The position numbers and the translations under genes were made by a program. A stretch of DNA of 64,000 nucleotides from an uncultured Gammaproteobacteria bacterium (lineage in GTDB: Bacteria; Pseudomonadota; Gammaproteobacteria; Pseudomonadales; JAHEGP01). The notes under the pieces were generated by a model, which was given only the letters and a program-made list of their open reading frames with translations, was not told where the DNA came from and searched no databases. Of this stretch, positions 32,016 to 59,700 are shown in pieces (position 1 is the first letter of the stretch; each line of letters begins with the position of its first letter). The stretch lies in the NCBI GenBank assembly GCA_963751595.1, contig CAVVVC010000004.1, positions 73,262 through 137,261 on the forward strand. Direction: 5' to 3'.

Positions 32016-32020
32016 AAGAA

Positions 32021-42608: not shown

Positions 42609-43259
42609 TTACGCAGCAGCCTGGTTACGTCGACGGGCAACCCCGGCCAGACCCACCAACCCGGTGCCAAACAACCATACGGCGGCGGGTAAGGGCACTT
42701 CCTGCACGTCGAGGGTTGCGCCGGTGTAGCTAACATTGCCAACCTCTAAGCCGGCGCCATCAAACCAGGGGTCGGAAATTGCGTTGATCCCAAGAGTAAG
42801 AGGGGACGTTCCAAGGGCGGCGTCCGCCAGCACGCTAAACTGCAAGTCGTATACATCAAACAGGGTTCCCGCCGAGTCGCACCCAAAATTCAATGTACAT
42901 GTGGTCCATGTAACGTTTAGCGACCCTGCAACTTCATCTATGTTTACGACGTTAAATCCAGCGTCACCGCTGTTGTTCAGGAATTGGTTCAGCTGAATAG
43001 TTCTTATGCCTATGGCGACATTGCTCGGTGGTGCGTTTAGCGCCAGCCGCGTGGGGTCCCAGGTCAATTCGAAGCCTCCCCCGGCGGAACCTCCCTCTGC
43101 CGTGAAGTTGGCCGAAACTGAAGCATTGATGGTTGACCCCGGCACGCCTACCAGCGGATCCGGGTTGACAAAAATGTCGGCGGCATTGACACCGGTCGCC
43201 ATCAGGAAACCTGATACTCCGATCAATGTGCTTCTTATGCTGTTTTTCATCTTATTCAC
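42609..43259 (-). CDS. PEP-CTERM (VPLPA-type) sorting-domain protein
   Basis: Signal peptide ...GVSGFLMATGVNAADI and C-terminus VQEVPLPAAVWLFGTGLVGLAGVARRRNQAAA. Confidence 0.85.
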   Translation of the reverse strand: MNKMKNSIRSTLIGVSGFLMATGVNAADIFVNPDPLVGVPGSTINASVSANFTAEGGSAGGGFELTWDPTRLALNAPPSNVAIGIRTIQLNQFLNNSGDAGFNVVNIDEVAGSLNVTWTTCTLNFGCDSAGTLFDVYDLQFSVLADAALGTSPLTLGINAISDPWFDGAGLEVGNVSYTGATLDVQEVPLPAAVWLFGTGLVGLAGVARRRNQAAA

Positions 43260-43428
43260 TCCTTGGTAATTCTCGAAAGAACCGTTGTGTTATGCCACTT
43301 ACTTTTTTATTTGAGCGCGTCCTGCGCCCGAACCCTTTCTTTTTGCCGTAAGGCCATCATTGCTAACGGCGCCCCAAGCAAACTATCGCAAGACCCCCTT
43401 TCGAAATTGGGCGCTTACCGTAAAGTGA

Positions 43429-43444
43429 AGCAAGTACCGTGCCA
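43429..43444 (-). promoter_or_regulatory. sigma-54 promoter (-24/-12) for PEP-CTERM gene 42609..43259
   Basis: The minus strand reads TGGCAC-GGTAC-TTGCT, a full match to TGGCAC-N5-TTGCW. It lies ~170 nt upstream of the ATG at 43259. Confidence 0.75.
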
Positions 43445-43508
43445 GCATGCACTTTTACTCTGTTTCTCGGTCACTTAGCGATCGCTTTCAGGCCCTAAAA
43501 CAGGGGGC

Positions 43509-43628
43509 TGTATAGAATCTCGACACCTTTACAATTCCAATTTTTTTGCTGGGTGTATTAAATGCGTATTTAAATCATAAGGTTATGTGGCGAGCGGGCT
43601 GTAATCATCACTGTAAAAAATTTCGACA
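43509..43628. promoter_or_regulatory. two copies of a 17-bp TGT-N11-ACA motif (candidate enhancer-binding-protein sites), module copy 1
   Basis: TGTATAGAATCTCGACA (43509-43525) and TGTAAAAAATTTCGACA (43612-43628). They lie 65 and 168 bp upstream of the minus-strand sigma-54 element. The same pair recurs at 48729-48848. Confidence 0.55.
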
Positions 43629-43738
43629 ATCCTGAGTGGGTGTGCTACCAACCTGCGTGTTCCCGCTCGTTGGGCATTCTAAAGTCAGGATTTATGTGTC
43701 TCGATTCTGCGTAGCCGACAACGCCATCAGCCCACAGC

Positions 43739-44430
43739 GTGCGGATTGGAAGTCAGGAATCAACCAAAAAGCAATGGACGCTGCCAAAGTGATGGAGAGC
43801 TGACCAACCGGGCTATGCCTGCAGAGGTCGGTGTCAAACGACCTTCATGGGGTATTGGCTGAAGACCGTTGTCGTGATCGTTGCGGGACAAGGAGTGGCC
43901 CCTGTGGTGCGTCAAATTCAAATCGATAAGCCGGGTACACGCGAATTATCTGGAGGGCGCCGAAACTGACAAGGAGGCATTAACGATCCCGTGAAGTGTG
44001 ATCGGCACCAGGTTACCGGACGAGCGGTGTCCGGCATAGAGGCGGCGCGAGTTCGATTCAGGCGCTTTGGTGGAACTGGGTGAACTTGGGATCGTGATGT
44101 CAAGTGAGGCTGTCGAGTGAAGAAAAGCGGGCAGGAAGTACCGTGCACGACCCGCGGAGGGGCCGAGCTGTGCAAGCGATAAAGCATCTGTAATAGATGT
44201 GGAGCAAAGGGATCGGATTGTTTCAATCGCATCTATGGCCAAATCCGGTGGGGGTGAACGACTGATACTCGCGAAACCCCTTATTATTTGCAATCAGCTG
44301 GCAGGGGAGCCGTACCGGCGTGTTAAGGCCAATCGAGGAGCGGCAGGAATCGACGCGTCAACAGTCGAGAAATTCGACCCGGACCGCAATAGGCATCACC
44401 ACCGGGTCTGGAGTCCTGGCCTTTGACTGC
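43739..44430 (+). mobile_element. group II intron fragment (5' RNA domains plus first ~50 codons of the reverse transcriptase), 3'-truncated
   Basis: It begins with GTGCG at 43739, exactly where homology between the two regulatory-module copies breaks. ORF 44199..44426 contains ...EPYRRVKANRGAAGIDASTVEKFD..., the canonical N-terminus of intron-encoded RT/maturases. No RT core, domain V or domain VI follows. Confidence 0.7.
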
Positions 44431-44456
44431 GGCCAAAATCTCCTGGCGGCTCTTCG

Positions 44457-44490
44457 GGCGTGAGCTAAATCCCGGCTCACGCCGCTTTTG
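44457..44490 (+). terminator. terminator-like hairpin followed by a C10 tract
   Basis: The perfect 9-bp stem ggcgtgagc (44457-44465) pairs with gctcacgcc (44475-44483), followed by gcttttg and then cccccccccc (44491-44500). Confidence 0.45.
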
Positions 44491-44673
44491 CCCCCCCCCC
44501 TTTCTTTTTCAGCCGTCCATCGTTTCGATCAACGGGAGAGGTAAGCGGGGAGCTGCCCAAGAATAGCTATTCAAACCTGATAATCCAGCTAACTGTTTTT
44601 TTAAAGCTACGAGGGGGTGCCTGCTTCGGTAATCGAATCCGCTTTCAAGCAATCACTGAATTATCCCGCGCTG

Positions 44674-44690
44674 TGTCGGTATTTTTTACA
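44674..44690. promoter_or_regulatory. third (inverted) copy of the TGT-N11-ACA motif, module copy 1
   Basis: TGTCGGTATTTTTTACA lies 77-93 bp upstream of the plus-strand sigma-54 element. The identical 17-mer occurs at 49245-49261. Confidence 0.55.
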
Positions 44691-44766
44691 TATCACGAGG
44701 CCGTCAGGTAGTTGGGCTTGCTTGAGTCGGTGCTAAGTTGTTGTGCTACCAATTTTTTTATCACGC

Positions 44767-44782
44767 TGGCACGGCGCTTGCA
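44767..44782 (+). promoter_or_regulatory. sigma-54 promoter (-24/-12), operon A
   Basis: TGGCAC-GGCGC-TTGCA is a perfect consensus match. Confidence 0.8.
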
Positions 44783-44989
44783 GTTAAGCTCCATGTCAAG
44801 CAACTTGCTGCTCAGAATAAATTTCAATCATAAAGCGAGCGATCAATGATGCTTCTGTTGTGCGTTCAAATTATCCATCCAACCAGTAGGCATAGGCGTC
44901 TCTCCCCTTGGTGTGGCGATTGCAGTGTTGCTTTGACTGTTCGCTTTTGTCAGAGCTTGATTCAGGGGCGTTGTCGCTAGTCGGCTTCA

Positions 44990-45203
44990 GCAAGGTTTGC
45001 GATGCTGACTTCGATGGCAGACTCACCGAGACCTAGACGATTTCGGCCGAATCAGGAGCGTATTCGGTAGCCCGGTATCGGGTGGAATACCTTATGAAGA
45101 TGCAGATCATGCCGATTTAGATGATGGCGGCGCGGTTGACCTCGACGACCACTTTTCGATATGTCAGGGCTCAACTTGGGTGTACACGGTCCCTCAGGGT
45201 TGA
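44990..45203 (+). pseudogene. relic of the 3' end of a tagged paralog (degenerate copy of 47440..47661)
   Basis: Nucleotide blocks align with the end of gene 46417..47661: tgcgatgc, tcaggagcgYattcgg, ccttatg, gatcatgcMgattt, ggttRacctc, ttttcRatat, ggtccctcRgggttga. One frame reads DADHADLDDGGAVDLDDHFSI..., compared with DHADFTGDGVVNLSDFSIFR in the intact gene. It is broken by stops and indels. Confidence 0.65.
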
Positions 45204-45470
45204 GACCGAAAAAGCGGATACACGGTCCGCTGTGGCGATAGCCAACACAAGTTGTAAGGCGAGGAACACGGCGGTGAGGAAGCTGAATCAGGAACACACA
45301 GGGAGAACATGACGGCGGAGGTGTCACCAATCGAAGCTCGGGTATTGTTACCCGTGGCAAGCGCACCGTGAATAACAACTATCGTTTTCGCAAACGATAT
45401 AGAGACGACAAAGGTAACAGCACAAAACCCGGTCCAATTGAAATCTGACGTTAATGAGGTGGAAAATAAA

Positions 45471-46388
45471 ATGAAAATACCATTCCCTAACACTTGGTCT
45501 TGCAAGCGTTTCACTCTTTGCAAGCGACAGGCTGTCTCGCTGCTTGCTATTCCCCTGTTATGCCACAGTGTCTATGGCCAGGCGGCCGTGTTACTGCTGG
45601 AGGGTCCCATTAGCGCTTTGACTGATGATGGTGACGGCACGGGGAGCATTACCGTAATGGGGGTCACTGTCGACATTCCTGTCGGGACGCCCATTACCAC
45701 GCCGACAGCCTCGCTGGGTATCACGGCTGCCGCCAACCCTTCGGTTCTACCCGGTCGAACCCAGGCCGGCTTTGTTGGTGGTACGGCCATTATCGAGGGC
45801 AGCGGTGATCTTGCTGGCGGCTACAGCGCAGACTCGGTGTTTCTGGAGCCCGCCGAGAATATTCTGGGTGCCGCAACCACTTCACTGCCGGGTGAATCCC
45901 TGCAAGTAGCCGGTGTAGCACTGAGCCCCACCGGCGATGCGCGCATTCCGAATGGCCCCTTCACCAATGTTTTCGGCTTCGAAGTAGACCCCGACAGTGT
46001 GCCTCAGGGTTCTGGTGTTGTCTCTGAGGGCTATCTGTCCAATGATGGCAGCGGGGTGATGAATTACTTCGCGATTGAAGTCGATGGTGGCACTCTGGTC
46101 AATGCTGGCATCACCGAGGTCAGTATCTCCCGGGCGCAGTGCCAGGAAGATCCGGGGAACCCGATTGAGCTGCGAGTACAAGGAGCGGTCCATGATTTCG
46201 CCCCGAGCGATGTAAGCATTACCGATGGCGGGTCGCAGGTGCCCTTCGGCACCGTGACACCCGTCGCAGATGTTGCTCCCTTCGGCGTCTATTCCTTTGT
46301 TTTGAGGGGTGATGCCGCCTTTACAGTCTGTCCAACCAGTGTCTCGGCGACCTTTAATGGCGTAACCACTACCGCGGCGGTGAACTAA
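45471..46388 (+). CDS. secreted protein, unknown family A (untagged paralog)
   Basis: ORF 45438..46388. The ATG at 45471 follows the RBS gaggtgg. The N-terminus is hydrophobic. It aligns with 46417..47661 through LLLEGPISA..GSITVMGVTVDIP.GT.ITTPTA..PGRTQAGF.GGTAII...EPAENILGA...FGFEVDP...TEVS..RAQC..IELRV.G.VHD...FGTVT.VADV.PFGVY and ends (..TTTAAVN) where the neighbour's tag begins. Confidence 0.8.
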   Translation: MKIPFPNTWSCKRFTLCKRQAVSLLAIPLLCHSVYGQAAVLLLEGPISALTDDGDGTGSITVMGVTVDIPVGTPITTPTASLGITAAANPSVLPGRTQAGFVGGTAIIEGSGDLAGGYSADSVFLEPAENILGAATTSLPGESLQVAGVALSPTGDARIPNGPFTNVFGFEVDPDSVPQGSGVVSEGYLSNDGSGVMNYFAIEVDGGTLVNAGITEVSISRAQCQEDPGNPIELRVQGAVHDFAPSDVSITDGGSQVPFGTVTPVADVAPFGVYSFVLRGDAAFTVCPTSVSATFNGVTTTAAVN

Positions 46389-46416
46389 CAAGGGCATAGA
46401 CCCGGAGGTAATACGA

Positions 46417-47661
46417 ATGAAACACCTGACATCAGTTTTTCTGGGAAAAAATCGTCTGCAGCTGGCAGCGGGGATCACATTTATGGTGCTGAGTTTTCCA
46501 GCTAGCGCCGTGCCTCTGTTGTTGGAGGGGCCGATCAGCGCCATATCGGCAAACCCCGATGGCTCTGGCAGCATTACCGTACTGGGGGTTGTCGTCGACA
46601 TTCCGGCGGGAACCAGCATTACTACGCCGACTGCGACCCTTAGCATGAACCAGGCAGTCAACACCACCCCGCTACCCGGGCGTACACAGCCTGGGTTTAT
46701 TGGTGGCACAGCCATTATTGCAGGCACCTCGGTGGCGAGCGTCAATACCGCAGATAGCCTGTTTATGGAACCCGCTGAAAATATCCTCGGGGCCGATGTG
46801 ACTTCGACTCCCCCCGATGCCATTGCAATCGCCGGCGTCCCGATGGTGCCCATCTCTGATGTTCGCCTGCTCGCCGGCCCAGTGACCAATGACTTTGGCT
46901 TCGAGGTCGATCCTGCCACAGTGCCCAGCGGCGTTGACGCGGTCGCTGAGGGGTACTTTTCCAACGATGGCTCCGGTGCGTTCCAGTACTTCGCTCTAAC
47001 AGCCTCGGGAGGCGATATCCTCAACCCAGGCGTTACCGAAGTAAGCGTTATCCGTGCCCAGTGCAGGGCAGGGGCCACGCCCGCCGATCCCATTGAACTG
47101 CGAGTGCTGGGCGGCGTGCATGACCCCGCCGGTGGCACGGTCACCATCAGGGACTGGGGACCAACCACATTCGGTACGGTGACGGCCGTCGCTGATGTGC
47201 CGCCCTTTGGAGTCTACGACTTTCGAGTGCGAACCGGCTTCACTGTGTGCCCGTCCAGTGTAACCGTGGAGTTCAGCGGTGCATCCACAGTGGCCGCGGT
47301 AGCGGGCGGTTCGCCCGATGTTGATGGCGATGGCGTGCGCGATGACGTGGACAATTGCGTCGATGTGGCCAATGGGCCGCTTATCCCCGATGCCGGTGGT
47401 TTTATCCAACGCGATACCGACGCGGATGGTTTTGGCAATATCTGCGATGCGGATCTCAGCCAGGACGGTACAACAGTAGTGAACCTCAGTGACTACGCCT
47501 TGTTCAGGAGCGCATTCGGCGATACCGCACCGGGCACGGAGCCTTATGGGCCAGTGGATCATGCAGATTTTACTGGAGACGGAGTGGTTAACCTCTCCGA
47601 TTTTTCAATATTCCGGGCGCAATTTGGCGGTGAGCCTGGTCCCTCGGGGTTGAATCCGTAA
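46417..47661 (+). CDS. secreted protein, unknown family A, with C-terminal TSP3/dockerin-like module
   Basis: 414 aa. Signal peptide ...MVLSFPASA. It is a paralog of 45471..46388. The last 119 aa (47302..47658) are the shared module: DVDGDGVRDDVDNC...DTDADGFGNICDADLSQDG..VNLSDYALFRSAFG...ADFTGDGVVNLSDFSIFRAQFGGEPGPSGLNP. Confidence 0.85.
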   Translation: MKHLTSVFLGKNRLQLAAGITFMVLSFPASAVPLLLEGPISAISANPDGSGSITVLGVVVDIPAGTSITTPTATLSMNQAVNTTPLPGRTQPGFIGGTAIIAGTSVASVNTADSLFMEPAENILGADVTSTPPDAIAIAGVPMVPISDVRLLAGPVTNDFGFEVDPATVPSGVDAVAEGYFSNDGSGAFQYFALTASGGDILNPGVTEVSVIRAQCRAGATPADPIELRVLGGVHDPAGGTVTIRDWGPTTFGTVTAVADVPPFGVYDFRVRTGFTVCPSSVTVEFSGASTVAAVAGGSPDVDGDGVRDDVDNCVDVANGPLIPDAGGFIQRDTDADGFGNICDADLSQDGTTVVNLSDYALFRSAFGDTAPGTEPYGPVDHADFTGDGVVNLSDFSIFRAQFGGEPGPSGLNP

Positions 47662-48544
47662 GGTCAGGCAAGGCGATGCTGTGCAGTCAGGTATCTCAAG
47701 ATGCACCGCACGAAGCAGCGGCGGAAGTGTCTTGAATCAGGGCCACGGTGAATACACCCTGTACCGCTTCAGCCCATGATGGGCTGGTAGCGAGATATCG
47801 TGGCACGGCGCCGGCAATCAGCCGTAGGAGAAAATCGATAAGAGCATTGAAAACAGAGGCAAACATAAAGGTGTGTCTGTATCGCCAATCCAGCGGGGGC
47901 TGCGTAGCCGCTAATTGTGACAGGTGGTCCCGCCTGACAATGCCTTCGCTGCTCTTGCCAGCTTTGGTTCCACAGGCTTTACAGGCGGGAGTCAGGGGAG
48001 AATAAATACGGGGCCTGGGTTTCTAACAGGTAAAAGCGCCACACTTTAATGAGCTCAAGGCGTTGGTGCATGCCACCAGGCATCATCCTGTAGTGTATTC
48101 CTGGTCCTCGAGCGCGATACCGACATAGCGCCCAGGCGCTGGAAATGGATAGCGACGATGTATTCGATTGCCTCCCGCAGCAGGGCTGAAAAGCCTTTGC
48201 ATTACAGATCCTGCCCCCGATGAGGATAGTCTGGGTGGTCCTTCGTTGCTGGACTTCATCCCGCAGCTAGTAGCTAGCCGGCCGCGTTCCAAGCCAAGCC
48301 TAAATTTGACGCGCTTTCACGGGTTTTGCTCGGGGCGGCCTGTGCCGTCGAGGAAGCGGCTGGCTTTCTGTTGGCCGGCTGGGAGGAATTAGGCTGACAG
48401 CGTTGAAGCGCAGGGGAGGCCAGGAATCAGCGGCGAAATGGGCTGGAATTAGCGAGAGAAACTCAGCGATGGCGCGCAGTACTATGCCAGCATGCTTTTA
48501 CAACGTTTACGGACGCATAAAGAATGCTAGGAGGCGCTTTAGTT

Positions 48545-48713
48545 GGAATGGCACTTACTTAAGGAGAAGGGCATAGGATTTTCGAAGCGCCGCTCCGAGT
48601 GTCTACCCCGTCAGAACACGCTGTAAACCCGCCCCTGGGGGCTCTGCGCCGACATCCCTGTCGGCGAAGGTCCTGCCGATAGACACCCGAATCGGCTTAA
48701 GTCAGTGCCATTC
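48545..48713. mobile_element. MITE-like palindromic element (169 bp) inserted in regulatory-module copy 2
   Basis: The terminal inverted repeats are ggaatggcacttacttaag (48545-48563) and cttaagtcagtgccattc (48696-48713), matching at 17 of 18 positions. The flanking 9-bp direct repeats are gctttagtt and gctttcgtt. The interior is an imperfect long palindrome (for example cgccgaca-tccc-tgtcggcg). The element is absent from the homologous site in copy 1 (tcgctttcagg, ~43484). Confidence 0.65.
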
Positions 48714-48728
48714 GCTTTCGTTGGTTAC

Positions 48729-48848
48729 TGTATAAAATCTCCACACCCCTATAAATACAAGGGCTTTAATGACTTAATAAATTACTTCAATAAATCATCG
48801 GGTTATGTCAATAACAGGTGCCAATCATAACTGTAAAAAGTTTCGACA
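48729..48848. promoter_or_regulatory. two copies of the TGT-N11-ACA motif, module copy 2
   Basis: TGTATAAAATCTCCACA (48729-48745) and TGTAAAAAGTTTCGACA (48832-48848), with the same spacing as in copy 1. Confidence 0.5.
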
Positions 48849-49244
48849 ACACTCACTTAATGTGCTGACAACCTACCCCGTCCAGTCCGTGACCATTCTA
48901 AATCTGTGCTTACCCAATCGATTCCGCGCAGCTGAAAAAGGTATCAGCGTCCAAAGAACCGCCGATGTGTTGCCAGCGGGCGGTGGTAAAACCGGTGTCA
49001 TTATTATTCACGGGGCGTGGCACAAGCAGCCTGACTGGCAGCGATATCATCCTTAAATTTCCGGCATTTTCGATCAGCAAAGCTGGAAATTACGATTCAC
49101 TACAATCTTGATGCCGAGGGTCTTATCCAAAAATAGCTATACAGAATCTATGGAATGTAACTCGCTATTTTATAGGTGCGAGTGGGGTGCTTGCCTCGGC
49201 AAACCTATCCAGCTTTCGAAGAACCACTGAGACATTTCGTTGAG

Positions 49245-49261
49245 TGTCGGTATTTTTTACA
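49245..49261. promoter_or_regulatory. inverted TGT-N11-ACA motif, module copy 2
   Basis: TGTCGGTATTTTTTACA, identical to 44674-44690. It lies 78-94 bp upstream of the sigma-54 element at 49339. Confidence 0.55.
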
Positions 49262-49338
49262 TATTACCGGGGGACAAGGTCGATGCGCTAGCAATGGCTT
49301 GCGCCAAGCTCTTGTTTTACTAACTTTTATGCCACCGA

Positions 49339-49354
49339 TGGCATGCCCCTTGCA
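49339..49354 (+). promoter_or_regulatory. sigma-54 promoter (-24/-12), operon B
   Basis: TGGCAT-GCCCC-TTGCA lies ~270 nt upstream of the ATG at 49625. Confidence 0.75.
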
Positions 49355-49624
49355 AGAGCACTAGCACCAGGCGTCTTGCTGCTCAATATATTAATCATAA
49401 AGTGAGCGACCCACGATGTACCGATACGTCGAAGATAGAAACCTAACCAGAAGGCACTGTTGCGCCTCGTCGCCGTGGCGCAATGCAAGCCGTGCCGCTT
49501 CGACGGCTCGTGTGTTTGAAGGCACCTCAAGTGCTGTGCTGCTTTTCAATGCGACTCCCCCAGCGAGGCCGCCAGTGCATTTGGCATAGTTAATCATCAT
49601 CCAAAAAAACATGAGGACTCAGGG

Positions 49625-52207
49625 ATGAAATTGAAAACCAGGCAGGGTCTACCCGGCCCAACGACGTTATTACACTGCAGCTATACGACTTTGTTGGTCA
49701 GTCTGCTTGGATACTCGCTTCCAAGCGTCGCCCAGGCACCACCGCCATTTCCGGCGCTTGCCACCATCGCCGTTCCCCAGCCCCTCGACCTCAACCAGTT
49801 TGTTAGCAATCAGTTCGCGGCGGAGGCACTGGGTAAGGCGCTGTTCTGGGATATGCAACTGGGAAGCGACGGGGTGCAGGCCTGTGCCAGTTGCCACTTT
49901 CATGCCGGGGCAGACAATCGCACGGTGAACCAGATCAACCCGGGAACCCTGGGCAATGACGACCAGTTTGGTAACAATCGGCTCGGGTTGTTGGAACCGG
50001 CCCCGGGTGCGGTGCGGCTGAACCAGGAACTCACCCCGGCGCATTTCCCTCTGCACAAACTGAGAAACCAGCATGCCGTCGGCGAGCCGGGGAACAATGA
50101 GAGCAATGTGGTGGTTGACAACAACGACGTAGTGTCTTCCCAGGGCGTTGTGCTCATGGACTTCGTCGATATTCAAATCGGTAATCCGGTTGATATCGGC
50201 GCTGCGGTGGTTGATCCGGTTTTCAATGTCAACGGCACTAACGTCCGCCGGGTCGAGCCTCGTAATACCCCGACGGTCATCAACGCGGTATTCAATTTCG
50301 AGAATTTCCACGACGGTCGCGCCAATAATATTTTCAATGGCAATAACCCGTTTGGACCCGCTGACCCCAGGCCCCACCTGCTGAATAATGAAACCGGTAC
50401 GCTGGTTCCGGAGGAGCTGCGGCTGCGCCACTCCTCGCTGGCTTCCCAGGCAGTGGGACCACCGCTGAGCGATTTCGAAATGTCGTGGCGCGGTCGGACC
50501 TGGCCCAAGGTGGGCAAGAAAATGCTCAGCCTGGAGCCGCTGGCCCAGCAGGCGGTGTCTCCGGATGATAGTCGCCTGGGCAACGTGGCCGACACTTCCG
50601 ATGGAGCAGGATTAATCCCCACAGTCTCCTATGCTTCCTTGATCCAGTCAGCCTTCCCGGCAAAATACTGGAATAATACCACCGAGAAGGTGGTCTACGA
50701 TGCCAGTGGCGATCCCAGCTTTTTGCCTGGTCCCGCGGATCCTCTAAATACTAACGAATACACCCAAATGGAGGCCAACTTCTCCTTCTTCTTCGGTATC
50801 GCCCTGCAAATGTACCAGGCCACGCTCGTTGCCAGCGCTTCCAAGGTGGACAAGTTCATCGACGGCAGTGGCGCACTCACCAACGAAGAACAGCTGGGTA
50901 TGGATGTGTTCGCCAACGACGGCAACTGTCTGGCCTGCCATGGCGGCGGCACCTTGATGGATGTTGATACCGCACTTATCCAGGGCGTCGACCCGACCGG
51001 TAACCCCGTCCTTTTCGATCAGAATCCCTTGTTCGCCAATGAGTTCATGCAGATCGCCACGGGTTTTGGCCTCTATGATAACGGCTTTCACAATACCGGG
51101 GTGCGCCCCACGGGTAACCCGGCAGCGCAGGCATTTGATTATCTGGCTGTCAATGAAGACGTGGGGCGGGGCGGTATGACAGGTCTCGGAGGAGGCCTCA
51201 CTGAGGTTTCCCTGTCGAAGGGTATTCTGGGCTTGCAGAATACCGGCGGCCCTACACTGCAAATGCCCGGGCTGGCGCCATTGCCCGGCTATATGGCCGA
51301 ATGGGTGCCGCCACTGCCACTGGGTTTCTTACCCAATGACACCAACCCAATACCGGGGAGGGTCACCAACTTCGGTGCCTTCAAAACGCCTGGCTTGCGC
51401 AATATCGCGCTGCAGGGTCCCTACATGCATAACGGTGGCCTGTCGACCCTGCGCCAGGTGGTCGACTTCTACGTGCGCGGTGGCGACTTCCCTTTGACCA
51501 ATGCCCATAACTTCGATTCCGAGGGCATGACGGTACTGCCCTTGTTGCGCGACACCGGCGCGGTGCCCGGGCAGCCGACACCGGAACAACTGCGAGACGC
51601 ACTGGTGCAGTTTATGGTGGCCTTGACCGACTCCCGGGTGGCCAACGAGGAGGCACCCTTCGATCATCCGGAGTTGTTCGTACCCATTACCGGCACTGCG
51701 CCAGTTACCCCCGGTACCCGCGCGCTGCTGCTGGCAGACACTACCAATTTCCGCCAGGTCCCGGCTGTAGGCAGTGACGGTCGCAATGCGCTGTTCCTGC
51801 CCCCGCTAGGTACCTTTCTGGGTCTGAACCCCCGTAGCGCCAGCATTGTTGCCGATGCTGACCTCGATTTGATTGCCGACAACCTCGACAACTGCGAGGA
51901 CGATGCCAACCCCTTGCAGGAAGATGGCGAAGGGGATGGCGCGGGTGATGCCTGCGATAACTGTGTTGCCGTGGCCAATGCCGATCAGCGCGATACCGAT
52001 GGCGATGGCTTCGGCAATATCTGCGATGCGGACCTGAACAACGACGGCAACACCAACCTGACCGACTTTGGCCTTTTTCGAACTTCTTTCGGTGCGAGCT
52101 CGCCGTTAAGTCCGGCAGAAGAAAATGCGGATTTGAACGGCGATGGCACGGTGAACCTGAGCGACTTTGGCTTATTTCGGAGTATGTTCGGCCAACCACC
52201 GGGGTAA
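49625..52207 (+). CDS. di-haem cytochrome c peroxidase / MauG-family protein with C-terminal TSP3/dockerin-like module
   Basis: 860 aa with a signal peptide. Two CxxCH sites (ACASCHFHAG and NCLACHGGG). Family blocks LGKALFWDMQLGSDG and FKTPGLRNIALQGPYMHNGGLSTLRQVVDFY. The last 118 aa (51851..52204) are the shared module. Confidence 0.85.
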   Translation: MKLKTRQGLPGPTTLLHCSYTTLLVSLLGYSLPSVAQAPPPFPALATIAVPQPLDLNQFVSNQFAAEALGKALFWDMQLGSDGVQACASCHFHAGADNRTVNQINPGTLGNDDQFGNNRLGLLEPAPGAVRLNQELTPAHFPLHKLRNQHAVGEPGNNESNVVVDNNDVVSSQGVVLMDFVDIQIGNPVDIGAAVVDPVFNVNGTNVRRVEPRNTPTVINAVFNFENFHDGRANNIFNGNNPFGPADPRPHLLNNETGTLVPEELRLRHSSLASQAVGPPLSDFEMSWRGRTWPKVGKKMLSLEPLAQQAVSPDDSRLGNVADTSDGAGLIPTVSYASLIQSAFPAKYWNNTTEKVVYDASGDPSFLPGPADPLNTNEYTQMEANFSFFFGIALQMYQATLVASASKVDKFIDGSGALTNEEQLGMDVFANDGNCLACHGGGTLMDVDTALIQGVDPTGNPVLFDQNPLFANEFMQIATGFGLYDNGFHNTGVRPTGNPAAQAFDYLAVNEDVGRGGMTGLGGGLTEVSLSKGILGLQNTGGPTLQMPGLAPLPGYMAEWVPPLPLGFLPNDTNPIPGRVTNFGAFKTPGLRNIALQGPYMHNGGLSTLRQVVDFYVRGGDFPLTNAHNFDSEGMTVLPLLRDTGAVPGQPTPEQLRDALVQFMVALTDSRVANEEAPFDHPELFVPITGTAPVTPGTRALLLADTTNFRQVPAVGSDGRNALFLPPLGTFLGLNPRSASIVADADLDLIADNLDNCEDDANPLQEDGEGDGAGDACDNCVAVANADQRDTDGDGFGNICDADLNNDGNTNLTDFGLFRTSFGASSPLSPAEENADLNGDGTVNLSDFGLFRSMFGQPPG

Positions 52208-52248
52208 TAGCGCGCTGCTGTGAAGACAGAAAAACAAGGATAATAAAA

Positions 52249-53484
52249 ATGAAACTTTCTGAAAACGCTGCGTCTCATTGTCCCCGAGCGGGGGGCGCAG
52301 CAAAGGCGGTGTTACTGGCTGTTCTTCTCGCTGCAGGCCCCGCCCAGGCGGTGCTGGTGGATTTCGGCCCCATTGATCCTTCGCACGGTTACCCTCTGTG
52401 GTACCGCGGCGCAGATGGTCTTGGCCTTGAATTGTGCCTCAGCGAGGCCGCCGCCAATGCTGCTATTCCGGGTAACCTGCTTTGTCTGCTGGATCCAGGT
52501 GAAAGGCAGGAGCCAGGCAATCCGTTCATATCCTACCCGGATAATTTCTGGCCGGAGGTGTTCTGGACCCGGGTAGATGCAGAAACGCCCACAGCTTTGG
52601 GTAGTGCATTGTTGGTAACGGCCTTGGAGGGGGCATTTTTCAATGAGGAACCGGTCGCCGGCGAAAATATCAGCTTTGCCCGCATTCGCGTTCGTATCGA
52701 CAACCCGGTCGCGGGCGCAGACCTTAAGGTCACCCATCCTTATGGGGTATTGACCTTTGAGAATCAACCTGCGGGCCTGCGGGCCATCAATTTTACCAGC
52801 GATGTCGGAATACAGGCCACACCACCGCCGCCCAGCGACTATACCGGAGCACTGGGTGGCAGCATCGGACCTTTCCTGCGCTGGACCGCTCCGGACTTCC
52901 CGGTACTGGATCAGAATGGTGTCGCTTACATTGGCGATCCCAATATTCCCCATACCGTGACGGGCAGCCCGCTGGGCACCAACTTTTTCAGAGTTGAAGG
53001 GCCAGTGGGGTTAGGCAGCCCCGGCGCGCCCAACCTCTGTGCCGACCCGCTATTGGGTGACGATCCGACGGATTTCACCGATTGTATCGAGACCGACCTG
53101 TTTGTGGGTTCCGGGAAAATTGCTGATTCCGACGCCGATGGCAGCCAGGACCATGCCGACAATTGTCCCGCTGTAGCTAACCCGGGACAGCAAGATAACG
53201 ACCGCGACGGGCTGGGCAATGCCTGCGATAACTGCATTGATGTAGCCAACGCCGACCAGCGCAATACTGGCGCCAACCCGGCTTTTGGCAACATGTGTGA
53301 TGCCGATCTCGACAATAACGGTGTGGTAAATTTGGCCGATTATAGCCTGTTCAGGTCGGAGTTTGGGTCAGTAGAGCCTTTGAGCGCGGCGCAAGAGAAC
53401 GCAGACTTCGACGGTGACGGCAATGTCAATCTCGGCGACTTCAACCGCCTGAGGACAATGTTCGGAAAGGCCCCGGGGCCATGA
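52249..53484 (+). CDS. secreted protein, unknown family B, tagged
   Basis: 411 aa with a signal peptide ..LLAAGPAQA. Family-B blocks: GYPLWYRGADGLGLELC, FARIRVRIDNPVAGADLKVTHPYGVLTF, IGPFLRWT, HTVTGSPLGTNFFRVEGP, DLFVGSGKI. The last 120 aa (53122..53481) are the shared module. Confidence 0.85.
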   Translation: MKLSENAASHCPRAGGAAKAVLLAVLLAAGPAQAVLVDFGPIDPSHGYPLWYRGADGLGLELCLSEAAANAAIPGNLLCLLDPGERQEPGNPFISYPDNFWPEVFWTRVDAETPTALGSALLVTALEGAFFNEEPVAGENISFARIRVRIDNPVAGADLKVTHPYGVLTFENQPAGLRAINFTSDVGIQATPPPPSDYTGALGGSIGPFLRWTAPDFPVLDQNGVAYIGDPNIPHTVTGSPLGTNFFRVEGPVGLGSPGAPNLCADPLLGDDPTDFTDCIETDLFVGSGKIADSDADGSQDHADNCPAVANPGQQDNDRDGLGNACDNCIDVANADQRNTGANPAFGNMCDADLDNNGVVNLADYSLFRSEFGSVEPLSAAQENADFDGDGNVNLGDFNRLRTMFGKAPGP

Positions 53485-53566
53485 AGGACGCAGCACCGAT
53501 ACCAGCCAGACACATTGGGCCGTTTTGGTCTAGGAACAAAATATTTCAGGTTGCGGAGAATATAAG

Positions 53567-54865
53567 ATGAAAACGTTCAGACTATGGCTAGTGTCAAGTA
53601 CGCTGCTGATTGGCTTGGCACAGACCGGCTTGGCTGCCTGCCCCGCCGATGGCGCCAAGCCCATGAATATAGGGCCCCACTCCGCGCAGACCACGTTTCC
53701 GCTCTGGGTGCAGGACTCCGAGGGGTTGGCGCTGGAGATTTGCCCGGGAACTGATGCGGTTAACTGCATCTCGGTACCACCCTTCACCGCGGCCGATTTC
53801 CCCGGCGACCCGGATGCCGCCGCAAAAGCCGCGTTATCGCAACAGATAGGGTTTGGCGACGAGGGTTTCTGGGCCTCTGCGGAAACCAGCATTGCTTTAC
53901 CCGGCGGTGGGCAGGCTTTGCTGGTGTCCGCGGTTGAAGCCGCCTTCCTGCCGGATTTTGCCCCCGGAAACCAGGTTCCTTTCACCCGACTGCGTCTTCG
54001 CATCGACATCCCGCAGGACGGCACCTATATCGTCACCCATCCCTGGGGCCAGATCACTTACGACATCGTCGGCGCCGCCAATAGCGGGGATATCAACGAC
54101 TCCTTCGATATTCCCTTCGCGGCGGACCAGGTTGGCTACCAGGGTCGCATCGGCCCCGTCCTGACTTGGGACACTTTTCCCGACGATCCACTCCTCAGTG
54201 GTGGCGCTTACATCGGTACATTGGCCGTAGATCGCCCGGTGAAGGGTAGCCCCTGCGGCACCAATTATTTTCGTATCGAGGGCCCGAACATTGGTGGGAA
54301 CGGCATCGATTTTATCCAAACCGACCTGTTTACAGTCACCGGTAAAGTGTACACCGGCGCGTTACCGACACCGCTGGAGGTCAGTCAGGTGAGCTACAGC
54401 CGCGCTGCCAGTGGCAGGGTCAATGTGTTCGCCGAGGCGCCCACTCAGGCAACCGTGAGTTTTAGTGGTGGAGGTGATCTGCCCGCCGGTCAACTGCCCA
54501 TGACAGGAGACGGCAGCGGTCGCTTTTTTGGCAGTGTGGCGCTGGCACCGGGGGCGACACTACCGGCCGAGGTGACCGTCACGGCAAGCAATGCTGCGGT
54601 AGGCGCCCAACCGGCCGAGACCGTCAACCCCCTGGTTGACCTGGTTACCATTTCCCGGGCGGAATTTGATTACGCGACCGGTGATCTGACCATTGAGGCC
54701 CACTCCAGCGACGAGGTCGCGCCACCCGTGCTGTCCGCCCTGGGGCAAAACCTTAGCAACGGCGTGTTGAGCACCAATTTGATCGTTGCCCCGCCGACGG
54801 TGACCGTAAGTTCGTCTGCGGGCGGTTCCGCCACCATCCCAGTGACAGTGATTCACACCCCATAA
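53567..54865 (+). CDS. secreted protein, unknown family B, untagged
   Basis: 432 aa with a signal peptide ..IGLAQTGLAA. Blocks: FPLWVQDSEGLALEIC, FTRLRLRIDIPQDGTYIVTHPWGQITY, IGPVLTWDT, VKGSPCGTNYFRIEGP, DLFTVTGKVY. It ends VTVSSSAGGSATIPVTVIHTP, at the position where the next gene (..VTVSSSAGGLATSLVAVVNSADEDGDG..) continues into the module. Confidence 0.85.
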   Translation: MKTFRLWLVSSTLLIGLAQTGLAACPADGAKPMNIGPHSAQTTFPLWVQDSEGLALEICPGTDAVNCISVPPFTAADFPGDPDAAAKAALSQQIGFGDEGFWASAETSIALPGGGQALLVSAVEAAFLPDFAPGNQVPFTRLRLRIDIPQDGTYIVTHPWGQITYDIVGAANSGDINDSFDIPFAADQVGYQGRIGPVLTWDTFPDDPLLSGGAYIGTLAVDRPVKGSPCGTNYFRIEGPNIGGNGIDFIQTDLFTVTGKVYTGALPTPLEVSQVSYSRAASGRVNVFAEAPTQATVSFSGGGDLPAGQLPMTGDGSGRFFGSVALAPGATLPAEVTVTASNAAVGAQPAETVNPLVDLVTISRAEFDYATGDLTIEAHSSDEVAPPVLSALGQNLSNGVLSTNLIVAPPTVTVSSSAGGSATIPVTVIHTP

Positions 54866-54886
54866 GCGCAGCCGGAGACTGATAGA

Positions 54887-56614
54887 ATGAACAATAAAAT
54901 AGACAAAACCATGGTCCCGGTCTTGCTTGGTTTGCTCTTGAGCTCGACCACCAGCAATGCTGCGGATTTTTTTGCCGGCCCGCCGAACCCCAACAACGGT
55001 TTCTCGGAATACTTGACCGACGCCAATGGGCTTGAGTTAGAACTGTGCCTCGACCCCGCCTTCTGCCTTTTCGACCCTTTAGATCCGACCAACGATTTTT
55101 CAAATCAGATCGGCTTTGGTGCGGAAGGCTTCTGGTGGCTGGCCGAACCCGACACATCCGGCTTCCCGGGTACCATCGGGGCCACGCTGGTGCTTGCTGC
55201 CGAGGCCGCATTTGCCGCGGAAGTTCCCATTGATGGCGACCAGTTCCCCTTCACCCGGTTGCGCATTCGCCTGGATCTCCCGGTGCCAGGGATCTACCGC
55301 GTAACCGAGCCTTATGGGGTACACATTTACACCGTCACTGCCGTGGGTGCGGGCCTCGAGGTCAACGAAAGCTTCGACGTGCAGTTTAACCAGGGCACCA
55401 TCGATGACCAGGGCAATGTGACGGAAGCCGTCAACACCTATGGCGGCCCCTGGCTAACCTGGGATACCTACCCCAATGATGCTGCACTGGAAAACACCGG
55501 TGACGGGGTCGCGGATTTCATTGGTGACGGTGCCACCCCGCATGCGGTTATCGGTAGCCCCGCTGGCAACAACTTCTTCAAAATCGAGGCGTTTTCGGAC
55601 GCAGCCTTGACCGTCCCCTTGAACACCTTCGACCCAGGTGATGGCGATGACGATGGCAGTGCCAACAGTGTCACGGCCAGCCTGTTTACCGTGGTGGGTA
55701 AAGTCTACGACGGTCGACTCGCCACGGCAATGAGCGCCGAGCGCCTTACCTACTCGCGGGATGCCGGCGGTACCGGGCAGGTCGATGTATTCACCCGGGG
55801 CGCTGCGACCGCTAGCGTGACAGCTGCGGGCGGTCCCAATCTGGGCGGGCCTTTCAGCTTACTTGCGGATCAGGGCAACTTCTTTTTGAGCCAGCAGTTG
55901 ACGCCCAACGCGGTGGCATTGCCCTCTTCGGTAAACATTGAGGCAACCGATACGACCGCTGATCCGACCCGCTTGATTCAATCGCTGTCGGATTTCGTGA
56001 GCATTACGCGTGCGGAATATGACCTGGGAGCTTCGCCTCCGGCCCTGACCATCGAGGCTGCATCGAGCGATGCCCTGACTCCGCCGGTGCTCACGATCGT
56101 CGAGCTGGATCAGCCGCTGACTGCGGGCAGTGCAGTTATCACTGAAACGGCGGCGGGCGACCCGATCGCACCGCCTGCCTTGGTTACGGTGAGCTCCTCC
56201 GCCGGCGGACTTGCGACCAGCCTGGTGGCGGTGGTTAATTCAGCTGATGAGGACGGCGACGGCGTGTCTGATGACCTGGACAATTGCCCGCAGACTCCCA
56301 ACTCGGGGCAGGCGGATACCGACGCGGATAGTATTGGCAACGCCTGCGATAACTGCCTGCAAGTTGCCAACACCGACCAGCGTGATACCAATGATGATGG
56401 CTTCGGTAATGCCTGTGATGCAGACCTTGACAACAGCGGAGTCGTCAACTTGGCCGACTTTCAATTGTTTCGAGGCGTTTTTGGAGAGTCGCCATTGAGT
56501 CAACTTGGAGACGATGCCGATTTTGATGGCGACGGTAATGTTAATTTGGGAGATTACGGCAAGTTCAGAAGCGTGTTTGGGCAAAAACCCGGTCCATCAT
56601 GCTGTGCGCCTTAA
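54887..56614 (+). CDS. secreted protein, unknown family B, tagged
   Basis: 575 aa with a signal peptide ..LLSSTTSNAA. Blocks: FSEYLTDANGLELELC, FTRLRIRLDLPVPGIYRVTEPYGVHIY, GGPWLTWDT, HAVIGSPAGNNFFKIEAF, SLFTVVGKVY. The last 124 aa (56240..56611) are the shared module. Confidence 0.85.
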   Translation: MNNKIDKTMVPVLLGLLLSSTTSNAADFFAGPPNPNNGFSEYLTDANGLELELCLDPAFCLFDPLDPTNDFSNQIGFGAEGFWWLAEPDTSGFPGTIGATLVLAAEAAFAAEVPIDGDQFPFTRLRIRLDLPVPGIYRVTEPYGVHIYTVTAVGAGLEVNESFDVQFNQGTIDDQGNVTEAVNTYGGPWLTWDTYPNDAALENTGDGVADFIGDGATPHAVIGSPAGNNFFKIEAFSDAALTVPLNTFDPGDGDDDGSANSVTASLFTVVGKVYDGRLATAMSAERLTYSRDAGGTGQVDVFTRGAATASVTAAGGPNLGGPFSLLADQGNFFLSQQLTPNAVALPSSVNIEATDTTADPTRLIQSLSDFVSITRAEYDLGASPPALTIEAASSDALTPPVLTIVELDQPLTAGSAVITETAAGDPIAPPALVTVSSSAGGLATSLVAVVNSADEDGDGVSDDLDNCPQTPNSGQADTDADSIGNACDNCLQVANTDQRDTNDDGFGNACDADLDNSGVVNLADFQLFRGVFGESPLSQLGDDADFDGDGNVNLGDYGKFRSVFGQKPGPSCCAP

Positions 56615-56759
56615 CCCAAGGGCATGGGCAAGGATGCCCGTTGCGAAGAAAGGTGTCGGTCGGCAACAAATAATGGAATGAAAGGCCGAAAGGGATTGGT
56701 TGTTTCAGCAAGGCTGAGTACAAAGGCATGATCTGTAAAACAGATCGGGAGACAGGAAA

Positions 56760-59700
56760 ATGAAATCCAGAAAAACAAGATCGATAACTAAGTCGGTGCG
56801 AACCGCAAAAATGGCGGGCCTATTGGGCTTGGCTGGCCTTTCGCAGACGGCCACAGCCGCCGTCAACATACCCTCGGACATGCCCGCCAGTCCACTATTT
56901 GGCGCGCAGTCCTTTGCCCAGCAAATGCTGCGTTTCGAAGAGTTCGAGGTGCGCTTGATGCCGGCGCCCGGAGCCGACCAGACGAGAACATTCGATCCGC
57001 CCAATACCTGTGACGGCAGGCCGAACCCCTCCGCTATGGAGAGCCTGCTCGACGCGCCCCTGTGGCCAGATCCAACCATAGAGGCCAATACCAGTCTGCC
57101 CAACCCCTGGGCCGGGGCTATCGATAGCTGTATCCCGGGGGTCATTCCCAGCGGGGGCGCGATAGAGGGCAGGCCGCCGGGCGTGAGTTTCTCCCACCAG
57201 CGTTATGATGAGTTCCCCCCCGCGGTATACGCCCAGAGCATGATGGGCGCTGCCCGCGCCGGCACCGGTCGCCTGGATGATGCACAAAGCCACGGCTACG
57301 CAGTGGGTGAGTTCGCACCTGGCGGGCTATACCACAACACCACGGGCGCCTTCGGTGGTACCTCCAATGGCACTACCGCCGGCATTGAAATCAAATTTCA
57401 CCCCTCCATGCCGGCGCAGGATCCAAACCGGCTGTGGACCTTCGGCGATGGTACGCTGCCACCGAAACTACTGAGGGCCCGCTATGGCCAGCCGATTCTG
57501 TTTCGCCATTACAATGCCTTGCCCATCAACGTTGGCGCCAACGACGGCTTTGGCGAGCACACGATCACTACCCACCAGCACAATGGCCATAACCCCGGTG
57601 AGGTCGACGGCTTTGCCGGTGCCTACTTCTTCCCTGGACAGTTCTACGACTATCGCTGGCCCATGGTACTGGCGGGTTACGACAGCATCAACGCGGATGC
57701 GCGGGATCCCCGTGCCTCTACTCCGTGCTCAGCGGGCGAGGTGCTGATGATTGCCGACCCCAATACCGGCACAACCAAGCCCAAGACCTGCGACCCCGAA
57801 ACGCTAACGGTCAATATTCCGGGCGACTGGCGCGAGACCATGAGTACGCTCTGGTTCCATGACCACATGATCGACCGCACCTCGGAGAACGTCTACAAGG
57901 GCAACGCGGCGATGATGAACTACTACAGTGGCATCGATCGCGGCAAGGAAGGCTTTCGCTGCGATTATGCTGACACCCCCGAGCAGGATAATGTCAATCT
58001 GTGCTTCCCCAGCGGAACCGCCCTGGACTGGGGGAACCGCGATTACGATATCCAGTTGCTGATTGCCGCCAAGGCCTGGAATCAAAGTGGTCAGTTAGAC
58101 ATGGCGCTGGGCCTCAATGAAGATGGTTTCCTGGGAGACAGAATGACGGTTAACTGGCTGTACGAGCCGTATCTCGAGGTGCGTCCCCGCCGCTACCGCT
58201 TCCGGGTGCTCAACGGTGCCGTGGCGCGCTTCTTCAAGTTCGCTATTGTCGAGCAGGTGCAGGGTGGTGGTGGAACGTTCCAGGGCCCTCCGGGCTCTGG
58301 CGTGTCCTACAATCGGGTGCCGTACTTCATGGTTGCCAACGACGGCAACATCATGGAATATGCTGTTCCCTTTGGCCCGGGCAACCCCAATGGGGTCGAC
58401 CCGGATCTGCCGATTCAGTCAATTGCCGAAAGGTTCGATATTATCATTGACTTCGCCGGCAAGGCCGCGGGCACCAAGCTGTACATGGTAAACACCCTGG
58501 GGCATGACAATGGCCGTGGCCCCAAAGGTGTGGAGCCGCTCGCCAATATCCTCAATGGCACCTTCAGTCCAGAAATCCAACCCGGCTGCAATGACAACAA
58601 CTGCTGGTCAGACGACCCCACGCTGAGGCCCTTCCTGGAATTCCGGGTAGGCGCCTCTAACGGAGAGCCGGATTTGAGCATGGACCCCAACCTGTACGTC
58701 GCGACGGAGTTTGGTGGAGGGGGTAAAACCATGATTCCCCTGGTGCAATTTACCCAGGCGGAGCTCGATGGGGCCATCCATCGTACCTTCGACTTCACCC
58801 GGGGAGGTAATCCTGGAGAAGCAACCGATGGTCGCCAGACGCCTTGGGGTATCGTTACCGACGACGAGCCAGAAACTGGTGCTTGTTTAGATGATCCAAT
58901 CGCGAATCCGGGCACATGCTCCCGCACCGCCGACGTGAACCGGGTGTCGGCGGCCCCGGAAACCATCGGTGGCGGCGTCGAGATCTGGCACATCAGAAAT
59001 GGTGGCGGCGGCTGGGGCCACCCGGTGCATATCCACTTTGAAGAGGGCCAGTACCTGAACCGCGACGGAGCCATCCCGCCCCCCTGGGAGGTCGGCGCGC
59101 GCAAGGATATGTATCGCGTATCGGGTCTTGACGATCCCGGTAGCAGCTCGAATATCTCAGTTGCAATTCGCTTTCGCGAGTTTGCCGGTACCTACGTGGA
59201 GCACTGCCACAATACTACCCACGAAGACAAAGCCATGCTGCTGCGCTGGGATAACGAAATGCCGGGGCAAACGGTGCGCATACCGACACCGTTGCCGACC
59301 TGGGACGGCGTGGGCTATATCAGTGCCCTCAACCCACAGCCGTTTACCGACGCTACAGCAGTGGTGGAGTTACCAACCATCAAGACCGGTAACGTGGCAA
59401 TGGCGGCGGCTTCTGACCTGGACGGCGATGGCATTCTGGATAGCGTCGACAACTGTGTCATAGTCCCGAATCCGGGGCAGGAGGATGTGCTGGATATAGG
59501 TGGACCTGATGGCGTTGGCGATGCCTGCGATAATTGCCAACTGCTTGCCAACCCGGACCAGCTTGATACCAACGCCGACGGCTTTGGCAACGCCTGCGAT
59601 GCGGATCTCAACGGCGACGGCCAGGTGAACTTGGCTGACTTTGCTGAGTTCAGGGCGTCGTTCGGCACGAGCGGGAAAGATGCAGACCTCAATGGCGATG

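Follow-up and report, generated by a model that had tools for sequence, protein, structure and literature searches.

We analyzed a 64,000-nt stretch of DNA from an uncultured gammaproteobacterium (contig CAVVVC010000004.1, positions 73,262 to 137,261; hereafter the window, numbered from its first letter). Two of its noncoding regions, at 43433–44943 (copy 1) and 48478–49510 (copy 2), each precede an operon. A preliminary description proposed that they are copies of one ~1-kb regulatory module, with sigma-54 promoters and a triplicated 17-bp motif that might be bound by PrsR, an enhancer-binding protein encoded 11 kb away.

Two copies of a probable divergent sigma-54 control region

Comparison of the two intergenic regions by BLASTN resolved them into three collinear blocks of 60–69% identity: 43433–43496 against 48478–48538 (69%), 43508–43731 against 48728–48948 (66%, E = 3e-23), and 44557–44943 against 49127–49510 (66%, E = 4e-36). 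This alignment bears out the duplication of a regulatory module in front of both operons. The six 17-mers and the three perfect sigma-54 promoters present in the 64 kb all fall inside the two copies, which are laid out as follows.

Copy 1
43429–43444, minus strand: sigma-54 promoter TGGCACGGTACTTGCT, perfect consensus
43509–43525, minus strand: proximal predicted PrsR box TGTCGAGATTCTATACA, upstream of the minus promoter with a 64-nt spacer
43573–43585, plus strand: putative integration host factor (IHF)-like sequence AATCATAAGGTTA, between the two minus-side boxes
43612–43628, minus strand: distal predicted PrsR box TGTCGAAATTTTTTACA, its start 103 bp from that of the proximal box
44674–44690, plus strand: predicted PrsR box TGTCGGTATTTTTTACA, serving the plus promoter
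44767–44782, plus strand: sigma-54 promoter TGGCACGGCGCTTGCA, 76 nt after the box

Copy 2
48475–48490, minus strand: dead sigma-54 promoter TGGCATAGTAC-TGCG, with the −12 element lost
48729–48745, minus strand: predicted PrsR box TGTGGAGATTTTATACA
48832–48848, minus strand: predicted PrsR box TGTCGAAACTTTTTACA, 103 bp from the box at 48729–48745
49245–49261, plus strand: predicted PrsR box TGTCGGTATTTTTTACA, serving the plus promoter
49339–49354, plus strand: sigma-54 promoter TGGCATGCCCCTTGCA, 77 nt after the box

The consensus TGGCAY-N5-TTGCW has only three perfect matches in the window, and these are the three promoters that had been described. The minus-strand element of copy 2 is degenerate, as had also been claimed, because the GC register of its −12 element is lost. 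Scanning for TGTANANAANNNCSACA with at most one mismatch returned six matches in the 64 kb against 0.37 expected, a count reached in 0 of 100 shuffles, and all six lie at the positions first reported for the motif. Relaxing the scan to four mismatches added no further sites in the window. Read toward the promoter, the six boxes have a single orientation and the consensus TGTCGnnAtTtTtTACA; all fit TGTCG...T(T/A)TACA, with 3′ ends of TTTACA in four and TATACA in two. The inverted 17-mer before the plus promoter, GTGTCGGTATTTTTTACA, is the same in both copies, as stated originally, and is also 100% identical in two related contigs described below, L120 and L121.

Judged by this arrangement, each copy is a divergent control region in which two predicted boxes serve the minus promoter and one serves the plus promoter, the two promoters lying 0.8–1.3 kb apart. 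The triplicated motif thus stands as three boxes per copy, now organized as two minus-side boxes and one plus-side box of a divergent region. The notion of a ~1-kb module survives in part: the duplication holds, but only the ends are conserved. We rejected the entire 1 kb as one conserved unit, since its middle, 396 to 1045 bp long, cannot be aligned from one ortholog to another; the module is therefore better described as two conserved ends flanking a variable spacer.

Both ends also carry a candidate site for IHF. The minus-side sequence differs at one position from WATCAANNNNTTR, and the block AAATCA...TTATG around it is conserved in orthologs. On the plus side, a conserved GCCAAGTTGTTGTTTTA block between box and promoter fits the IHF consensus on the opposite strand with one mismatch; centered near −55, it could provide a DNA bend.

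Correspondence with the predicted PEP-CTERM box

Haft et al. (2006, BMC Biol 4:29; PMC1569441) described a 17-nt motif 1 that ends in TTTACA, is sometimes repeated, and lies 62.8 ± 10.6 nt (range 32–92) from a −24/−12 sigma-54 motif. The motif pair sits upstream of proteobacterial PEP-CTERM genes, with a few sites before other genes, and leader lengths are 23–221 nt. There, the phylogenetic profile of motif 1 matched PrsK, PrsR, and PrsT, and the motif was predicted to be the PrsR site.

The window agrees with most of this description. Its boxes share the 17-nt length and, in four of six, the TTTACA 3′ end, and the spacers, of 64 nt (minus side) and of 76 and 77 nt (plus side), all fall within 32–92 nt. 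The full −24 GG/−12 GC consensus is present in the three perfect promoters and not in the copy-2 minus element. All three prs genes are encoded on the minus strand at 27964–34063, 11 kb from the modules: prsT (27964–30603), prsR (30645–32015), and prsK (32021–34063). PrsR matches TIGR02915 at 680 bits (cut-off 502.6) and PrsK matches TIGR02916 at 627 bits (cut-off 300), with PrsT at 299.8 bits lying slightly below the TIGR02917 cut-off of 312.2. In a six-frame translation, PrsR was the sole carrier of the GAFTGA signature in the window, which supports the claim that it is the only enhancer-binding protein there. A PEP-CTERM-class gene follows the copy-1 minus promoter, although not the two plus promoters, and the minus-side leader of ~170 nt falls inside the published range, with the plus-side leaders of ~270 and ~690 nt outside it.

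We then scanned a genome collection (one genome per species) with the pattern TGTCGNNAYTTTTTACA-N60-90-TGGCAYN5TTGC. The combination of box, spacer, and promoter was found at at least 119 loci in alpha-, beta-, gamma-, and deltaproteobacteria, and the window lineage was not among the matches listed. Among these listed matches, the first downstream open reading frame (ORF), picked crudely, encodes a PEP-CTERM tail in 62 of 117 cases; the spacers from box to TGGCA (L001–L119) peak at 62–64, 73–75, and 84–87 nt, an ~11-bp phasing that indicates helical, face-of-helix constraints; and additional boxes tend to lie ~102–113 bp, or about twice that, further upstream. Given the match to motif 1, the presence of the prs genes, and the pattern at these loci, the proposal that the boxes are PrsR enhancer sites at sigma-54 promoters agrees with the published prediction and is supported by it. 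It also accords with later genetic reports from Zoogloea and Aquincola, where a PEP-CTERM gene is under the control of RpoN and PrsK/PrsR (PMC9012009, PMC9850573).

Conservation of the architecture in related contigs

Related metagenomic contigs were reached through homologs of the peroxidase encoded after copy 2 (MauG in the gene orders below) and of gene A, which lies right of copy 1. They are listed with the amino acid identity of their peroxidase to that of the window, where CuOx denotes the multicopper oxidase.

L121: 85%, one module; order proB, PEP-CTERM genes (minus strand), module, MauG-435-577-A-B-CuOx-SCO1
L120: 79%, one module; order module, MauG-A-B-...
L129: 91%, two modules; window layout at 72–79% DNA identity
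L130: 86%, two modules; one before CuOx-SCO1 and one before MauG
L131: 71%, at least one module; order ...CuOx-SCO1-263-177-module-MauG

The architecture is common to all five contigs, including both copies of L129 and both of L130. TGGCA and TTGC are unchanged in all nine aligned module copies, with TGGCAC in eight of the nine and TGGCAT in window copy 2. The copy-1 minus promoter is identical at 16/16 positions in the first L129 copy (L129_1) and at 15/16 in L120. Across the relatives the minus-side spacer is 64–65 nt, and a proximal box with this spacer is present in L120, L121, L129, and L130. Seven copies have both left boxes; these are 103 bp apart in six of them (both window copies, L120, L121, and both L129 copies), the exception being L130 copy 1 at 126 bp. 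On the plus side, the spacer measures 76–77 nt in eight copies and 85 nt in L131.

The presence of the same architecture once (L120, L121) or twice (L129, L130) in related contigs shows that the duplication is real. An assembly artifact was rejected, since L129, from an independent metagenome, has the same two-module order at 72–79% DNA identity, and a mobile promoter cassette was rejected because the module occupies the same syntenic site in relatives that have only one copy.

Boxes that outlive their promoter

No gene lies downstream of the copy-2 minus promoter. This promoter is damaged in the window and also in the second L129 copy (L129_2), where an 8-nt deletion takes out the −24 GG and the −12 reads TTAA; the two lesions are independent. 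Nevertheless, the left boxes of copy 2 agree with those of copy 1 at 31 of 34 positions in the window, and at 33 of 34 in L129, compared with 56–60% in the flanks (P = 9e-6 to 7e-7). A dead promoter next to conserved boxes indicates that selection retained the boxes and not the promoter. The copy-2 left boxes probably contribute to the plus promoter, at a distance of ~500 bp, as well; the three boxes would then act as one enhancer cluster.

Predicted target genes

The genes and leaders predicted to be controlled by the two copies are as follows.

42609–43250, minus strand: VPLPA/PEP-CTERM protein gene, probable ATG at 43250; target of the copy-1 minus promoter
44783–44980, plus strand: kept first ~180–200 nt of a conserved leader, copy 1; aligns to the copy-2, L129, L120, L121, and L130 leaders
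45471–47661, plus strand: genes A (45471–46388) and B (46417–47661), secreted paralogs right of copy 1
49355–49624, plus strand: leader of ~270 nt in copy 2, before the peroxidase gene, with conserved blocks and the ribosome-binding site GAGGACTCAGGGATG
49416–49589, plus strand: upstream ORF of 57 codons in the copy-2 leader
49625–60999, plus strand: target operon after copy 2, encoding the peroxidase, 411-, 432-, and 575-amino acid proteins, a multicopper oxidase, and SCO1
49625–52207, plus strand: MauG/MbnH-like di-heme peroxidase, first gene of this operon
56760–59780, plus strand: multicopper oxidase
59908–60999, plus strand: SCO1/SenC-cytochrome c

The product of 42609–43250 matches TIGR03370 (VPLPA-CTERM) at 33.4 bits, above the 25.35 cut-off, and its C terminus EVPLPAAVWLFGTGLVGLAGVARRR is common to the orthologs. 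Gene B encodes TSP3 and dockerin-like repeats; neither A nor B has a PEP-CTERM tail, and the domain that they share belongs to no Pfam family. The gene set of the copy-2 operon recurs in L121, L129, and L130, and in L121 the homologs of A and B lie within the MauG operon. The contents of the operon could point to extracellular metal or oxidative chemistry.

Most of the plus-side proteins share a C-terminal TSP3 and dockerin-like calcium-binding module that ends in ...FG..PGPSGLNP and weakly matches the NCBIfam "GC-type dockerin" model. This module could be a common anchoring tag distinct from PEP-CTERM. Several proteins of the predicted PrsR-controlled operon have no known family.

Origin of the duplication

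The homology of the copy-1 leader stops where a pseudogene relic starts (44983–45297, plus strand, between the leader and gene A). This relic of a TSP3/dockerin-type C terminus contains GFSKVCDADFDGR...DLDDFGRIRSVFG... and includes ~85 nt of downstream sequence. Its part 45052–45297 is 64% identical to 47504–47746 at the 3′ end of gene B (BLASTN, E = 4e-17), and BLASTX aligned it to the gene B C terminus with a disrupted frame (E = 2e-5). The relic looks like the scar of a deletion by which the leader became fused, near position +180, with the end of a gene formerly preceding A.

On these gene orders, the duplication is a by-product of operon rearrangement that accompanied the split of a MauG-like peroxidase/multicopper oxidase/SCO1 operon. 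Because L121 has a single-operon order, L130 and L131 have permuted orders, and copy 1 ends in a deletion scar, the simplest history would be a tandem duplication of module and operon followed by loss of redundant genes. The module before CuOx-SCO1 in L130 and the one at the junction of the permuted order in L131 imply that duplication and rearrangement of the locus are recurrent.

The halves of the modules have diverged unequally, in a pattern compatible with tandem duplication and gene loss. The right halves of copies 1 and 2 are 62% identical to each other, and either is 54% identical to that of L120. The left half of copy 1 is 71% identical to that of L120 and 60% to that of copy 2, which shows that the copy-2 left half has drifted. 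Within L129 the two module copies (1652–2140 and 6040–6540) are 78% identical, compared with 70.6% and 68.4% to their positional counterparts in the window, and both L129 plus-side boxes bear the same G-to-A change (TGTCGATATTTTTTACA). Together, the similarity of the L129 copies and this shared change suggest gene conversion.

Proposed mechanism and alternative explanations

Taken together, it is in our judgment likely that both copies are instances of the PEP-CTERM box, acting as divergent sigma-54 control regions that depend on PrsR. Following the general mechanism of the NtrC family, the sensor kinase PrsK would phosphorylate PrsR, whose dimers would occupy the 17-bp TGT-N11-ACA boxes and form an ATPase ring. 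DNA looping, probably aided by the conserved IHF-like site centered near −55, would carry the ring to the −24/−12 element, where sigma-54 RNA polymerase waits in a closed complex; the ring would then open the complex, and transcription would begin. In the putative ancestral single module, the minus side had boxes 103 bp apart, 64 nt before the promoter of a VPLPA/PEP-CTERM gene, and the plus side had one box 76–77 nt before the promoter of a long-leader operon, which would have encoded a secreted, dockerin/TSP3-tagged MauG-like peroxidase, the A/B proteins, a multicopper oxidase, and SCO1. In the window genome and in L129, module and operon would have been duplicated and redundant genes later lost, such that copy 1 may now drive the PEP-CTERM gene leftward and genes A and B rightward across the deletion scar, with copy 2 driving the remaining operon.

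Several points weigh against this reading. The plus-strand targets are not PEP-CTERM proteins, the ~270- and ~690-nt plus-side leaders exceed the 23–221 nt of Haft et al., and the plus-side spacer of 76–77 nt falls between the spacing peaks of the other loci, at least 119 in number. A 2023 paper still terms the enhancer "previously predicted", and the literature searched contained no direct PrsR binding to, or footprint on, the box. Another enhancer-binding protein that recognizes the box, or extra boxes, may lie beyond the 64 kb. As for the proposed history, blastn, tblastx, and tblastn searches of the region to the left of copy 2 (47662–48472) found no remnant of a PEP-CTERM gene, and several orders of duplication and deletion would be compatible with the sequences.

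One competing explanation for the boxes is that they are bound by another sigma-54 activator or DNA-binding protein encoded outside the window, PrsR being a mere neighbor. Its attraction is that PrsR binding to the boxes is deduced from sequence in a genome of which 64 kb are visible, and that the plus-strand targets lack PEP-CTERM tails. [quoted passage not shown] We consider a different binder highly improbable.

A second alternative is that copy 2 is a neutral leftover of segmental duplication in which only the plus-side box and promoter function and gene conversion has kept the left boxes alike. The dead copy-2 minus promoter is consistent with such decay, and copy-to-copy conversion is suggested by the identical G-to-A change in both L129 plus-side boxes and by the 78% similarity of the L129 copies, compared with 57% for the window copies. 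Conversion would homogenize the flanks too, whereas these are 56–60% identical and the boxes 91–97%, and the adjacent 16-bp promoter was left unprotected; this explanation is therefore unlikely. It has also to be considered that the main function resides in the conserved sequence after the plus promoters, as a structured RNA or a translated upstream ORF acting post-transcriptionally, which would add to PrsR-dependent control instead of replacing it. Blocks of the leader are conserved in the nine module copies, and its first ~180 nt survive also where a copy now stands before other genes. The upstream ORF (57–59 codons, from a conserved ATG to a stop codon ~35 nt short of the peroxidase start) keeps its start and stop positions and is open in all five peroxidase-proximal leaders, its equivalents lying at 6332–6505 in L129, 2764–2940 in L120, 3953–4132 in L121, and 9558–9734 in L130, where it is annotated as a gene.

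The leaders themselves speak against such a role. They have no Rfam match, their folding energies are ordinary (z-scores of −0.46 and +0.32), and the five orthologous leaders show no covariation, with an unfavorable RNAalifold term of +4.08; on these grounds a structured RNA or riboswitch was rejected. Substitutions in the upstream ORF fall evenly on the three codon positions, with no third-position excess (11/10/11 in the closest pair), and the other reading frames of this GC-rich sequence are also largely open, so the ORF was not accepted as a small-protein gene. A leader-centered function is rather improbable on this evidence, and PrsR-dependent control from the boxes remains the preferred reading.

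Comparison with known systems and significance

The window regions resemble the PEP-CTERM regions of Haft et al. in their 17-nt, TTTACA-ending and sometimes repeated box, in a spacer within range, in long intergenic regions, in the presence of prsK, prsR, and prsT within the same genome, and in one promoter that drives a PEP-CTERM-class gene. They differ in being bidirectional with 2 + 1 boxes, in the duplication of the whole region, and in serving multigene operons of secreted non-PEP-CTERM enzymes behind leaders of 270–690 nt instead of at most 221 nt. In Zoogloea resiniphila and Aquincola tertiaricarbonis, the pepA promoters (Gao et al. 2018, cited in PMC9012009; PMC9850573) likewise drive a sigma-54-dependent PEP-CTERM gene, with a start mapped downstream of TGGCAC/CTGCTT and a predicted enhancer upstream. 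Those promoters are betaproteobacterial, single-gene, and studied genetically, whereas the window is gammaproteobacterial and known from sequence alone.

Divergent sigma-54 promoters that share one cluster of enhancer-binding-protein sites between them are known from Escherichia coli zraP-zraSR with ZraR. That system has another regulator and site, and in the window the promoters are 0.8–1.3 kb apart with a variable middle and a sharing of boxes that is predicted. The upstream activating sequence of NifA, TGT-N10-ACA, is similar as a TGT...ACA dyad ~80–200 bp upstream of a sigma-54 promoter, often with an IHF site between; the window box is TGT-N11-ACA with asymmetric halves (TGTCG/TTACA) and a T-rich core, and NifA is an activator of the GAF type, whereas PrsR is of the response-regulator type.

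Since the motif and its regulatory logic were predicted in 2006, the locus is not a new kind of system. The modest additions made here are the non-PEP-CTERM targets, the conserved divergent 2 + 1 architecture, the predicted shared enhancer, the recurrent duplication with operon fission, and boxes that outlive a promoter. The nine homologous copies amount to natural variation on the predicted PrsR enhancer, with nearly invariant boxes and spacings of 64, 76–77, and 103 bp. They indicate co-regulation by PrsK/PrsR of PEP-CTERM matrix proteins with a peroxidase/multicopper oxidase/copper-chaperone operon, which hints at oxidative chemistry in the exopolysaccharide matrix, and the locus is a clear case of one operon turning into two co-regulated operons through duplication of a promoter region. 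A broader suggestion, which we put forward tentatively and with more doubt than conviction, is that the PrsR regulon includes a matrix-tethered oxidative-enzyme operon, that the module repeatedly seeds operon fission by tandem duplication, complementary loss, and partial gene conversion with its three boxes acting as one bidirectional enhancer, and that the ~270-nt leader with its upstream ORF could be a new post-transcriptional element.

Inserts and further observations

The palindrome GAATAGCTATTC is present at 44561–44572 as reported, but no ortholog conserves it; for lack of conservation in L120, L121, L129, and L130, we rejected it as an operator. Two metagenome-collection scans with module-specific patterns returned no matches. 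At 47801–47816, TGGCACGGCGCCGGCA agrees with the copy-1 plus promoter at 14/16 positions but is missing the −12 TTGC and any neighboring box; L129 has no promoter-like site at the equivalent place, and the resemblance is probably a chance match. Elsewhere in the window, among the polysaccharide genes, are two transposase genes of the IS1380 family (3538–4962 and 8324–9448), of which one seems to be shorter.

Two inserts interrupt the copies.

43732–44555, plus strand: lineage-specific insert with a truncated group II intron, copy 1, without counterpart in copy 2 or L129
48546–48713: 168-bp insertion resembling a miniature inverted-repeat transposable element (MITE), bounded by 18-bp terminal inverted repeats and separating the dead promoter from its boxes

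At the place of the first insert, L129 holds 426 nt of unrelated sequence. The insert has a GTGCG 5′ end at 43739, DNA homology to a bona fide group II intron on a Cupriavidus plasmid, and a reverse-transcriptase N terminus (...RVKANRGAAGIDASTVEKF...) that runs to ~44400 (49 amino acids matched, E = 1e-8). A weak match to RF01999 at 43795–43906 (E = 0.043, 23.5 bits) is under the gathering score of 36, and no RF00029 match to domain V/VI was found in the insert. By these signatures, the insert is a truncated group II intron fragment that lacks the full set of domains I–VI and a complete reverse-transcriptase ORF; the intron noticed initially is thus borne out as the 5′ part of one. A terminator-like hairpin (GGCGTGAGC...GCTCACGCC followed by TTTT) lies at ~44457–44495.

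The 168-bp insertion is flanked by an imperfect ~10–12-bp repeat (GCTTTAGTTG/GCTTTCGTTG). L129 lacks the element and shows a 12-nt overlap at the junction, as a target-site duplication would leave. An inserted element with terminal inverted repeats, as first suggested, is therefore present; since no further copy was found in the window or the fetched loci, it can plausibly but only tentatively be labeled a MITE.

Among more distant relatives, the AT-rich upstream regions in L124 and L125 have no clear box. The AT-rich region upstream of the peroxidase gene in L122 (4500–5160) carries solely variant TGTCGG-N-TTTT-TTAC repeats, four in number (TGTCGGnTTTTnTTAC), together with a sigma-54-like TGGCATGATGTCTGCT; this region may be a diverged form of the same control region. 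The modules of L130 lie at 1829–2483 and 9224–9490, and that of L131 at 9679–9796.

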